Source: Escherichia coli
GTDB taxonomy: Bacteria; Pseudomonadota; Gammaproteobacteria; Enterobacterales; Enterobacteriaceae
Reading direction: 5' to 3' (one strand)
Assembly (NCBI RefSeq): GCF_050920415.1
Contig: NZ_CP169309.1
Length of the DNA: 64,000 bases
Shown: piece after piece, positions 60,484 to 60,938 of the stretch
Layout of the letters: each line of letters opens with the position of its first letter
Position numbering within the stretch: position 1 is the stretch's first letter
Notes under the pieces: generated by a model
Told to the model about the DNA's origin: nothing
Database searches by the model: none
What the model saw: the letters and a program-made list of their open reading frames with translations, nothing else
Position numbers and translations under genes: made by a program

Positions 60484-60514
60484 CTCGCTGATTAAAATAT
60501 CCAGGGAAGGAAAT

Positions 60515-60778
60515 ATGATCGATCTGAAGAACCAGGAACGGGAGATTATCAATTTAATGTTCAGCCAGGGTATATCCTGGCTAACCGCCGTGCGTATCAG
60601 GCATAAACTATCACTTGCTGAAGTTAGTAAAATGTTGGGTATCTCGATTAATTCTCTAAAACAAATCGAAAAGACGGAACGGCTTAGTTCAAACATCAAA
60701 AACAAAATGGCAGGAATTTATGGTTGTCCGCCAGAGTTGCTGATATGCCCTTACTGGATGACGGCTGAACATAAATGA
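60515..60778 (+). CDS. small HTH-like protein of unknown function (87 aa)
   Basis: Intact ORF with a plausible HTH (LSLAEVSKMLGISINSLKQIEK), AT-rich, in the lplA-deoD gap where K-12 carries yjjJ. Confidence 0.4.
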   Translation: MIDLKNQEREIINLMFSQGISWLTAVRIRHKLSLAEVSKMLGISINSLKQIEKTERLSSNIKNKMAGIYGCPPELLICPYWMTAEHK

Positions 60779-60875
60779 ATAGTTTCGTGAATAGATACTC
60801 GAATGGATTTAATTTTCTATCCATATGAAAAATAATAGTAAATCTATAAATCAGTCGCTATTGATGAATAGATAC

Positions 60876-60908
60876 TAAAAAGCCGGAGCGGTCTCCCGCT
60901 CCGGCTTC
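60876..60908 (-). terminator. rho-independent terminator after deoD (end of the deo operon)
   Basis: Minus-strand hairpin gccggagcgggagaccgctccggc followed by ttttt. Confidence 0.75.
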
Positions 60909-60938
60909 ACACGACAATCGCCTTTCAGCGAAACACAA

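Follow-up and report, generated by a model that had tools for sequence, protein, structure and literature searches.

A small helix-turn-helix gene occupies the yjjJ (hipH) position between lplA and deoD in most Escherichia coli genomes, next to conserved upstream boxes of the kinase gene

Introduction

What takes the place of the kinase gene yjjJ in Escherichia coli strains that do not have it between lplA and deoD, and what has become of the sequences that lie upstream of it in strains that do? In K-12, the gene order is ytjB-lplA on the plus strand followed by yjjJ and deoD on the minus strand, and the yjjJ stop codon abuts that of lplA. YjjJ (b4385), also called HipH, is a HipA-family Ser/Thr kinase toxin without linked antitoxin, the control of which has been described as unknown (PMC8262856), and HipB has been reported to rescue its toxicity (PMC9948734).

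The window analysed here is a stretch of 64,000 nucleotides from E. coli contig NZ_CP169309.1, and all positions refer to it. Its first-pass annotation correctly stated that K-12 has a gene of about 1.3 kb between deoD and lplA (the yjjJ coding sequence measures 1329 bp). It proposed either that loss of the kinase had left the strain with a remnant or a different small regulator, or that the locus had never acquired yjjJ.

Results

The stop codons of lplA (60483) and deoD (60939) are separated by a gap of 455 bp (60484-60938), in which a single substantial intact ORF encodes 87 amino acids (Table 1). The G+C content is 40.9% in this ORF and 37.5% in the other 160 bp of the gap, compared with 49.8% in the whole window, 56.1% in lplA and 51.7% in deoD. 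The earlier description of an AT-rich interval of about 450 bp with one small intact ORF bearing a helix-turn-helix (HTH) is thus accurate, Pfam, AlphaFold2 and Foldseek all speaking for the HTH. An 87-aa ORF on the minus strand (60442-60705) was dropped as the antisense shadow of the HTH ORF. On the left, K-12 homology reaches the lplA stop codon (60481-60483; blastn), and on the right the window DeoD is 100% identical to K-12 DeoD (tblastn). The hairpin downstream of deoD was also scored as a minus-strand terminator in a scan of BL21. A consensus scan of 60300-61000 found no terminator-like site, and Rfam gave a single chance-level match over 60300-61100, on the deoD terminator. As lplA and the HTH ORF are not separated by a hairpin, the two genes are likely to be co-transcribed.

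Table 1. Features of the lplA-deoD interval and its borders in the window
Feature	Position	Strand	Remarks
lplA (lipoate-protein ligase A)	59467..60483	+	338-aa ORF; annotated as lplA in identical record NZ_CP169399; left border of the variable segment
Allele-specific segment	60484..60769		286 bp; occupies the slot of the 1329-bp yjjJ coding sequence of K-12
Shine-Dalgarno-like purine run GGGAAGGA	60504..60511	+	upstream of the HTH ORF ATG; read from the sequence
XRE-family HTH gene	60515..60778	+	87 aa; RefSeq WP_000566247.1, "helix-turn-helix domain-containing protein"
yjjJ start-codon position	60770..60772	-	CAT on plus strand, ATG on minus strand; now the His86 codon of the HTH ORF
Three tandem TGAATAGAT boxes	60776..60808		12-bp period; TGAATAGTTTCG, TGAATAGATACT, CGAATGGAT; 30/33 positions identical to K-12
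Inter-box spacer	60809..60864		haplotype-specific; -35-like and -10-like hexamers on minus strand, identified by eye
Distal box TGAATAGATACT	60865..60876		65 bp from last proximal box; directly after the deoD terminator T-run; 12/12 identical to K-12
deoD intrinsic terminator hairpin	60880..60907	-	inverted repeat with perfect 12-bp arms; T-run on minus strand
deoD (purine nucleoside phosphorylase)	60939..61658	-	239-aa product; annotated; right border

In a blastn comparison with K-12, homology ends at 60483 and restarts at 60770, and there is none in between on either strand. The junctions of the intervening segment coincide with the lplA stop codon on the left and the yjjJ start codon on the right, where K-12 reads ...CTCATTAATGAATAG and the window ...AACATAAATGAATAG. 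These alignments make it very probable that the yjjJ coding sequence was replaced from start to stop by 286 bp with an independent gene on the opposite strand. Neither the segment nor the ORF has blastn similarity to K-12 yjjJ in either orientation. Aligning the product to YjjJ, as had been suggested, gave no significant BLASTP match (best E 0.18, over 6 residues), and in an hhalign comparison of its profile with the YjjJ N-terminal domain only a 26-column generic HTH motif was aligned (probability 42%, E 2.6e-4). The NCBIfam YjjJ model matches K-12 YjjJ, not the 87-aa protein.

The HTH gene is already annotated in RefSeq and so far uncharacterised. Pfam matches of its product are to HTH_3 (PF01381), a marginal one of 23.6 bits against a cut-off of 23.0, and to Sigma70_r4 (25.3 bits, cut-off 24.1); the orthologue P0077 scores 20.6 bits with HTH_3, below the cut-off of 23.0. 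NCBIfam gave only sub-threshold generic HTH or antitoxin matches, and a PDB sequence search nothing below E 0.08. The AlphaFold2 model is confident (mean pLDDT 89.5, pTM 0.81) although built from nine sequences only, and predicts an N-terminal helix (residues 4-18) followed by a five-helix XRE fold, with helices at 22-29, 34-41, 45-54 and 59-69, in keeping with a bundle in which helices 2-3 form the HTH. The top Foldseek matches in the PDB are all XRE/Cro-type repressors (CylR2, C.BclI, P22 c2, SinR, DdrO and 434 Cro), with TM-scores of up to 0.77 on the target and an rmsd of 1.4-2.2 A over 53-60 columns.

Among 5426 complete E. coli genomes, the HTH segment is present, annotated as a coding sequence, in 4073, nearly always as a single copy, and yjjJ in 1348. 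The two add up to 5421 and account for nearly all genomes. They are mutually exclusive, never occurring together, and a blastn search at word size 11 detected no diverged yjjJ copy elsewhere in E. coli genomes. The HTH allele, with about 75%, is thus commoner than the yjjJ allele of K-12, with about 25%. Matches to E. coli "plasmids", which might have spoken for a mobile origin, turned out to be mis-filed chromosomes of 0.4-4.9 Mb. Orthologues of the HTH gene occupy the same position in E. marmotae, Superficieibacter, Enterobacteriaceae UBA3516 and a metagenome contig, in the same orientation and free of frameshifts, with 86-87 aa and 45-97% identity. Even lineages with no more than 45-49% identity have length, frame and 31 invariant residues in common. 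The HTH cassettes of E. coli and E. marmotae are 96.6% identical, compared with 92-93% for lplA and 94-95% for deoD. Pairwise dN/dS among the main E. coli alleles is 0.11-0.23 (dS 0.12-0.29), the exception being the pair of the Escherichia lineage L004 and BL21 (0.7). The ORF is under purifying selection and did not arise by mere chance. Some alleles are disrupted (by an internal stop in UTME-13, with frameshifted or truncated products elsewhere), so the gene is dispensable in some strains.

The kinase gene has the wider distribution at this position. It adjoins deoD and/or ytjB in Salmonella, Cedecea, Erwinia, Pantoea and six other genera, and is found at the locus from Erwinia and Pantoea to Salmonella and Escherichia with identities of 46-70%. 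These comparisons make yjjJ the older occupant and are consistent with vertical descent.

A profile search of 1.84 billion representatives returned only three full-length clusters of the 87-aa protein. The next matches are HTH proteins of 95-130 aa with E-values from 6e-10 to 1e-6; over query positions 9-77, hmmsearch gave 5.9e-10 for P0085, 5.2e-8 for P0089, 4.4e-7 for P0095 and 1.1e-6 for P0099. The closest detectable homologues include gp0033 of Pasteurella phage Pmp14 (37.7% identity by tblastn), WP_129941838.1 of a Serratia plasmid and BCI50128.1 of phage PPyecE_EH1910. In four of the five homologues examined, a RelE/ParE toxin gene immediately precedes the HTH gene on a phage, plasmid or contig; these are RelE/ParE-associated HTH antitoxins in the HigA-like order, toxin first. 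The window protein is 30-38% identical to them over residues 10-77 and shares the motifs SLLAAWRI / SWL(A/T)AVRI and a C-terminal IYxC. In contrast to it, the antitoxins carry an N-terminal RelB-like toxin-binding part (weak match to Pfam PF18506) that adds 25-60 residues, whereas 8 residues precede the aligned region in the window protein. Their toxin gene lies 36-113 bp upstream, whereas no RelE/ParE-like ORF was found in 60484-60938 or its flanks. By sequence comparison, the 87-aa protein is a homologue of the C-terminal DNA-binding half of HigA-like antitoxins, and as the toxin-neutralising N-terminal part and a toxin partner are both missing, it would qualify as an orphan antitoxin-type repressor.

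HipB, tied to HipA-family kinases, is similar in size (88 aa) and fold class (XRE). The comparison with HipB that had also been proposed nevertheless gave no BLASTP alignment at E <= 100, and the NCBIfam HipB model NF007271 did not match. The lplA-deoD gap has no kinase gene, and the HTH ORF is not part of a kinase operon. The HipB operator, TATCC-N8-GGATA, is not present.

The sequences upstream of yjjJ have fared differently from its coding sequence. In yjjJ genomes, the three proximal boxes, which read ATCTATTCA on the yjjJ strand, end 1-3 nt before the yjjJ ATG; in the window, the first of them supplies the TGA stop codon of the HTH ORF, whose 3' end faces the yjjJ promoter and boxes. Across Enterobacterales, from Pantoea to Escherichia, yjjJ is preceded by the conserved box module, with a distal spacing of 65-66 bp in Salmonella, Erwinia, Cedecea and Pantoea. 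K-12 and BL21 agree at 44 of 45 box positions and at 24 of 56 spacer positions (Fisher p = 5e-10), a conservation that holds although HTH-type genomes do not have YjjJ. The window spacer matches that of K-12 at 25/56 positions (about 43%) and that of BL21 at 54/56; an identical 56-nt spacer is common to BL21, IAI39 and E. marmotae. Its hexamers lie where yjjJ loci have their promoter, and a core, TGAAAAnTAnAG, is common to the spacers of both haplotypes and of several genera. Boxes are kept in the HTH-type loci of three lineages and are absent from about 50 "empty" loci; one HTH-bearing lineage (L090) has none, and L004 has lost one. The tandem array occurs once per E. coli genome. In YjjJ itself, the recognition helix ISQATFSR of the N-terminal domain is invariant and co-occurs with the invariant boxes.

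Several other candidates for this region were discarded or are of minor weight. Consensus scans of the window, K-12 and BL21 detected no strong promoter on either strand; a plus-strand match at 60492-60519 overlaps the ATG and is unable to serve the HTH ORF. Recombination that keeps refreshing the boxes was rejected as the cause of their conservation in E. coli, the HTH-type and yjjJ-type modules being about 73% identical overall. A 27-codon minus-strand ORF from the retained yjjJ ATG and a 17-codon plus-strand ORF in the spacer (ATG at 60826) are conserved in none of L004, Superficieibacter and UBA3516. Inverted repeats that could be XRE operators (ATGGAT-N10-ATCCAT at 60803-60824, TAATAG-N5-CTATAA in the spacer, and a palindrome at 60563-60582) occur in E. 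coli, are not conserved across genera and are leads only. The promoters of the homologous antitoxin operons carry TATAAGAT/ATCTTATA repeats resembling the box core ATAGAT; this is a weak lead, as the resemblance is short and AT-rich and could be due to chance.

Discussion

We propose, with a probability of roughly 0.6, that a toxin gene was displaced at this locus by an orphan antitoxin-type repressor gene while the module upstream of the toxin gene was retained. The lplA-deoD locus exists as two non-homologous alleles, or idiomorphs, of which the window carries the commoner. The yjjJ allele consists of a monocistronic kinase toxin gene with a promoter flanked by one distal and three proximal boxes, and the HTH allele of an orphan antitoxin-type gene in place of the yjjJ coding sequence, with the boxes kept. 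The 87-aa protein is probably a functional DNA-binding regulator and may act as a small transcriptional repressor. The target that we would favour is the retained module of boxes and promoter, which is directed antisense to the HTH gene and lplA; by silencing the orphaned toxin promoter, the protein would set up an autoregulatory convergent-transcription circuit. We nevertheless consider it rather doubtful that the protein binds the TGAATAGAT boxes. XRE dimers usually bind inverted repeats rather than 12-bp direct repeats. The location of the boxes 3' of the HTH gene is an unusual placement for an autoregulator.

The history of the locus is the easier part to judge. Degradation of yjjJ, with its N-terminal HTH domain surviving a deletion of the kinase part, might be suspected from the HTH present in both proteins, with its 26-column alignment, and from the persistent start-codon triplet. 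This view deserves next to no credence and is refuted by strand, position and missing homology: the ORF is encoded on the lplA strand and is read in the direction of the yjjJ promoter, not away from it, DNA and protein comparisons gave nothing significant, and the YjjJ N-terminal domain is a MarR-type winged helix, if anything, as opposed to an XRE fold. Genuine remnants also look quite unlike the ORF, those of WB61 and Phytobacter keeping the first ~46-53 codons on the yjjJ strand and Kosakonia sp. S29 providing another example. Of the first-pass proposals, the remnant therefore has to be given up in favour of the different small regulator, an independent XRE-type gene that is related to neither YjjJ nor HipB and widely conserved in its own right. 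That the locus never had yjjJ, the HTH gene being original and K-12 a later recipient of the kinase, could be argued from the majority status of the HTH allele, from its occurrence in E. marmotae and from the "empty" locus of E. whittamii, which derives from the HTH type. We find this very improbable, given that yjjJ occupies the position with the same box module in Erwiniaceae and many Enterobacteriaceae. Moreover, the promoter module and start-codon position that persist at 60770-60876 make sense only as yjjJ leftovers, and in all lineages the stop codon of the HTH ORF is supplied by the first box.

Whether the HTH gene has a function, and whether that function involves the boxes, is a matter of finer balance. 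It could be a decaying hitch-hiker, a mobile antitoxin fragment brought in by the event that destroyed yjjJ, unexpressed or useless, and persisting by linkage only. Its G+C content of 40.9% compared with about 52-56% in the flanks, its narrow distribution (the three clusters), the loss of both antitoxin N-terminal half and toxin partner, and the disrupted alleles together with the dN/dS of 0.7 between L004 and BL21 are what one would expect of such a fragment. The invariant residues, low dN/dS in most comparisons and confidently predicted fold argue against it, as do the cassette that is more conserved between E. coli and E. marmotae than either neighbour and the identical E. marmotae spacer, and we judge decay improbable. 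A possibility to be taken seriously, if not one that we favour, is that the gene encodes a real XRE regulator to which the boxes are unrelated, being maintained by a host factor or promoter constraint, while the 87-aa protein has targets in trans or no specific ones. As the boxes are kept equally in both kinds of loci, one common factor is the simplest assumption; a Reg-Seq study saw an unidentified repressor site in addition to MarA at the K-12 yjjJ promoter (PMC7567609), and ChIP-exo on tagged YjjJ gave no binding sites (PMC8464067). The direct-repeat arrangement, atypical for XRE dimers, and the ORF without boxes in L090 also fit. On the other hand, the boxes are missing at every "empty" locus and form one tandem array per E. 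coli genome, so that a host factor would have a single, accessory target. The invariant recognition helix and invariant boxes point instead to YjjJ as the binder in yjjJ strains, which leaves the boxes of 75% of strains unexplained. The boxes may be read by the YjjJ N-terminal HTH in yjjJ strains and by a host factor in both alleles.

The locus matters beyond the question of its origin. Work on YjjJ/HipH rests on K-12, and the kinase is missing from about three in four complete E. coli genomes, those of BL21 and O157:H7 among them, so that HipH phenotypes cannot be general for the species. The box array, conserved from Pantoea to Escherichia, is a concrete candidate operator for HipH, and the presence of an antitoxin-type protein in the allele that keeps the array suggests a possible functional tie between the alleles. 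A far-reaching version of such a tie, which we think unlikely, would have the 87-aa protein acting in trans as a repressor dedicated to the hipH operator, with the boxes as the control element of the "antitoxin-less" HipH. If this were true, the boxes would be kept because the 87-aa product binds them and silences the orphaned promoter; a hipH copy arriving from outside would likewise be silenced, or neutralised. The locus would then have a toxin allele and an "immunity" allele, both maintained within E. coli, and these toxin and anti-toxin idiomorphs would form a long-standing polymorphism across Escherichia species. If the alleles are functionally unlinked, the locus would be a clean case of non-homologous allelic replacement at a toxin locus, with limited wider consequence.

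Literature searches with locus tags, protein accessions and the box sequence found nothing relevant, and no description was found of an orphan antitoxin that replaces a toxin of another family and keeps its module. The two alleles share the lplA-deoD slot and the flanking box module, and differ in that YjjJ has 443 aa and a HipA_C domain (Pfam), whereas the 87-aa protein has no kinase domain. Like orphan (solo) antitoxins, the HTH gene encodes an antitoxin-type protein without a toxin, and like idiomorphs, two unrelated sequences alternate at one position between conserved flanks. What sets the HTH gene apart is that it replaces a toxin of another family, a HipA-like kinase rather than RelE/ParE, and inherits the cis-regulatory module of that toxin.

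The gene between lplA and deoD

In the window, the stop codons of the convergent genes lplA and deoD are separated by 455 bp, and this gap contains a single intact ORF of 87 codons, hereafter the HTH gene. Both the ORF (40.9% G+C) and the other 160 bp of the gap (37.5%) are AT-rich compared with the window (49.8%), lplA (56.1%) and deoD (51.7%). The ORF starts 31 nt past the lplA stop, its start is preceded by GGGAAGGA, and no hairpin was found between the two genes. The product, labeled "helix-turn-helix domain-containing protein" in RefSeq, narrowly passes the Pfam HTH_3 threshold (23.6 bits versus 23.0). 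Its AlphaFold2 model (pLDDT 89.5, pTM 0.81) shows a five-helix bundle with an additional helix at its N-terminus, and the leading Foldseek matches in the PDB are all XRE/Cro-type repressors (CylR2, C.BclI, P22 c2, SinR, DdrO, 434 Cro). The description in the first-pass annotation, a small HTH ORF in an AT-rich interval of about 450 bp, is thus borne out. A minus-strand ORF of the same length is an antisense shadow of the HTH gene. Two inverted repeats, one seen in the window only and the other also in the aligned E. coli HTH alleles, could be candidate XRE-type operators; conservation across genera was found for neither.

Features of the lplA-deoD locus in the window and in compared loci
Feature	Position	Strand	Remark
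lplA	59467-60483	plus	stop codon 60481-60483
HTH gene	60515-60778	plus	87 codons
Antisense shadow ORF	60442-60705	minus	rejected
Allele-specific segment	60484-60769		286 bp
Palindrome AGCCAGGGTA/TATCCTGGCT	60563-60582		inside HTH coding region
Box array	60776-60876		
Three proximal boxes	60776-60808		
Inverted repeat ATGGAT-N10-ATCCAT	60803-60824		across third box and spacer
Distal box	60865-60876		
deoD stop codon	60939-60941	minus	
K-12 box array	L001:2504-2610		
E. whittamii gap	L005:5018-5093		
WB61 yjjJ remnant	L089:2449-2640		
CFT073 insertion	L002:1897-2355		IS200C transposase gene

At a matching position and orientation, the HTH gene recurs in E. marmotae, in Superficieibacter sp. (49% identity), in Enterobacteriaceae bacterium UBA3516 (45-48% identity), on one metagenome contig and in L004, a divergent Escherichia lineage that is filed as E. 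coli. When 1.84 billion representative proteins were searched in full with an HMMER profile, just three full-length clusters of the family came up. HTH lineages that share less than 50% identity still agree in length (86-87 aa), frame, start region and 31 invariant residues. The main E. coli alleles have dN/dS values of 0.11-0.23 (dS 0.12-0.29), and the window and BL21 differ at 9 of 54 synonymous but only 6 of 207 non-synonymous sites; one allele pair, L004 and BL21, gives a dN/dS of 0.7. Judging from these comparisons, the ORF is a real gene under purifying selection. It is nevertheless dispensable in some strains: the UTME-13 allele is interrupted by a stop codon, and there are records of frameshifted or truncated products. 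E. coli and E. marmotae are more alike in the cassette (96.6%) than in lplA (92-93%) or deoD (94-95%), which indicates strong constraint or recent interspecies exchange; the E. marmotae locus and BL21 have an identical 56-nt spacer.

An allele, not a remnant, of the yjjJ locus

The gene order given for K-12 in the first-pass annotation is correct: lplA(+), yjjJ(-), deoD(-), with the yjjJ stop abutting the lplA stop. Because yjjJ and deoD are transcribed in parallel, the yjjJ promoter and 5' end lie toward deoD and the 3' end toward lplA. Homology between the window and K-12 breaks exactly at the lplA stop and restarts at 60770, with the CAT that complements the yjjJ ATG. The same annotation had proposed that the strain lost the kinase and kept a remnant or a different small regulator, or that the locus never acquired yjjJ. 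A remnant is ruled out. The HTH gene runs opposite to yjjJ, the 286-bp segment has nothing in common with the 1329-bp yjjJ in either orientation, and no significant BLASTP alignment of the product to YjjJ was found. Profile-profile comparison with YjjJ N-terminal domains from ten genera aligned just 26 columns, the generic HTH motif, at 42% probability, and no alignment to HipB was found. True yjjJ remnants, as in E. coli WB61 and Phytobacter diazotrophicus, look different: they retain the first ~46-53 codons, on the yjjJ strand and adjoining the boxes described below. The proposal of a different small regulator is supported: the HTH gene is an independent, conserved XRE-type gene.

The proposal that the locus never acquired yjjJ is likewise rejected. 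The yjjJ homologues (46-58% identity) of Salmonella, Cedecea, Erwinia and Pantoea adjoin deoD and/or ytjB. Of 80 Enterobacteriaceae loci recovered with an LplA query, about 50 have a gap of just 50-150 bp; yjjJ is intact in seven, two or three show yjjJ fragments or only the boxes, the HTH gene occupies three, and a few have unrelated inserts (REP-associated transposases, fimbrial-like genes, a lipoprotein). This pattern, expected of an ancient syntenic gene with many losses, makes yjjJ the earlier occupant. The "empty" gap of E. whittamii keeps the HTH-type junction ATTGATGAAT, fused to the deoD terminator, and hence derives from the HTH cassette by deletion rather than being an ancestral empty state.

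The partial yjjJ deletions (WB61; L031, L042, L020) are independent; Kosakonia sp. S29 keeps an internal fragment, and Kosakonia quasisacchari two boxes and no gene, so that repeated loss of yjjJ from the locus is evident from these sequences. The gap between the convergent genes is also a small insertion hot spot. Unrelated inserts in other genera (L033, L082, L035, L061, L030, L059, L068) include REP-associated tyrosine transposase-like genes with REP arrays in Pseudocitrobacter and Kluyvera, a fimbrial-like secreted protein in Enterobacter cloacae, a small lipoprotein, a YjdF-like membrane protein and a 406-aa secreted protein. In CFT073, the IS200C transposase gene lies between the yjjJ box module and deoD, and splits the distal box and terminator from deoD.

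Distribution of the two alleles in E. coli

Of 5426 complete E. coli genomes, 4073 have the 286-bp segment, nearly all in single copy, and 1348 have yjjJ; together these make 5421, and the two genes therefore behave as alternatives at one locus. No diverged second yjjJ copy was detectable in E. coli genomes by blastn at word size 11. The window's own HTH allele is a minority type, with at least 99% segment identity in just 168 genomes and 90-95% in most. Several PLSDB records (NZ_CP134663.1, NZ_OL790696.1, NZ_CP141089.1; 4.8-4.9 Mb) are evidently E. coli chromosomes filed as plasmids, which accounts for "plasmid" matches to the chromosomal HTH gene.

Allele type is uncoupled from the flanking lineage. 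The deoD of A0 34/86 (HTH) is 99.9% identical to that of CFT073 (yjjJ); the corresponding values are 99.7% for IAI39 (HTH) and WB61 (yjjJ remnant), and 99.0% for O157:H7 (HTH) and K-12 (yjjJ). On the other side, lplA is unusually polymorphic in E. coli (94-97% between strains; K-12, L084-L088). The window lplA shares about 94% identity with every other allele examined, and so stands almost as far from these as from E. whittamii lplA (91.6%), with divergence peaking in the 3' 400 bp that adjoin the variable segment. Old linked haplotypes may lie behind this, or sequence imported from other species of Escherichia.

A box module that outlasts yjjJ

Directly upstream of yjjJ, every genus examined has three tandem ATCTATTCA boxes (yjjJ strand) with a 12-bp period, which stop 1-3 nt short of the ATG (about 20 nt in Pantoea), and a fourth box 65-66 bp further upstream, usually right past the deoD terminator. 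The array ranges from Pantoea and Erwinia to Escherichia (K-12, L094-L097, the window), and in most genera yjjJ lacks a Shine-Dalgarno sequence. The Salmonella spacer contains a clear promoter, read by eye (TTGACA-17-TTAAAT, -10 abutting the boxes), with weaker hexamers at this position in other genera. Nearly all E. coli genomes have the tandem array, at one place each; no boxes were found at empty lplA-deoD loci.

Sequence comparison shows that the HTH allele has retained this yjjJ module. Between K-12 and BL21, the boxes are identical at 44 of 45 positions and the spacer at 24 of 56 (Fisher p = 5e-10). Superficieibacter and UBA3516 keep intact boxes, with 0-1 mismatch in each, though the HTH protein has diverged by half. 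Boxes of HTH-type loci are no more degenerate than those of yjjJ-type loci in other genera, and the module is therefore constrained even in cells without YjjJ. Every box-keeping HTH lineage (L004, Superficieibacter, UBA3516, the window) ends the HTH gene with the first box's TGA, which argues for a single origin of the fusion. The exceptions to box retention are one HTH-bearing lineage (L090), which lost all boxes, and L004, which lost one.

Discussion

Our data establish the replacement geometry, the allele frequencies, the purifying selection on the HTH gene, the kinship of its product with an antitoxin family, the persistence of the yjjJ module and, as a model, the XRE fold of the product; the mechanism that we propose goes further. 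In yjjJ strains, the boxes may be an autoregulatory operator for the N-terminal HTH of YjjJ, whose recognition helix is invariant across genera. Reg-Seq reported an "unknown repressor" at the K-12 yjjJ promoter (PMC7567609), which fits such autoregulation and makes the box array a candidate operator for it; ChIP-exo with YjjJ was negative (PMC8464067) and does not support it. In HTH strains, the orphaned yjjJ promoter would point antisense into the HTH gene and lplA; the K-12 yjjJ-lplA pair is already listed as a convergent excludon. The HTH gene is probably transcribed together with lplA, because there is no terminator between them and the Superficieibacter start codon lies 6 nt past the lplA stop.

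Such a promoter would need to be held in check, and the economical candidate is the 87-aa protein itself, presumably a DNA-binding repressor. We consider its binding to the boxes possible but doubtful (probability about 0.3). Homologous antitoxin operon promoters contain TATAAGAT/ATCTTATA repeats that resemble the box core ATAGAT, a weak point in its favor. Against it, XRE dimers as a rule recognize inverted repeats, and the position of the boxes is 3' of the HTH gene. To a host factor that binds the boxes instead we give similar weight.

In the literature searched, which was incomplete, we found no paper on the HTH gene, the allelic replacement or the box array and its sequence. The HipH literature describes the kinase encoded by yjjJ (hipH) as the product of a monocistronic gene that has no antitoxin linked to it and whose control is unknown (PMC8262856), and treats the kinase as an E. 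coli property. As a by-product, our analysis yields a candidate hipH operator that is strongly conserved. The result is solid and open to testing, and would be a modest surprise for toxin-antitoxin specialists; it would amount to a new kind of system only if the 87-aa protein proves to act on the hipH operator.

The relatives of the protein place it, by homology, in an antitoxin family. Past its own family, the best profile matches (E 6e-10 to 1e-6) are to proteins of 95-130 aa, in which the C-terminal 70 residues correspond to residues 9-77 of the query, and tblastn finds the same protein type on phages and plasmids (30-38% identity). Four of five contexts examined have a RelE/ParE-family toxin gene immediately upstream of the homologue: Pasteurella phage Pmp14, Enterobacteria phage PPyecE_EH1910, a Serratia plasmid and metagenome contig L093. 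Two of these proteins show a weak RelB-like match at the N-terminus. Compared with HigA-like antitoxins, the 87-aa protein matches the DNA-binding half, but has neither the toxin-binding half nor a toxin partner, and is therefore an orphan antitoxin-type XRE regulator, idiomorphic with a toxin gene.
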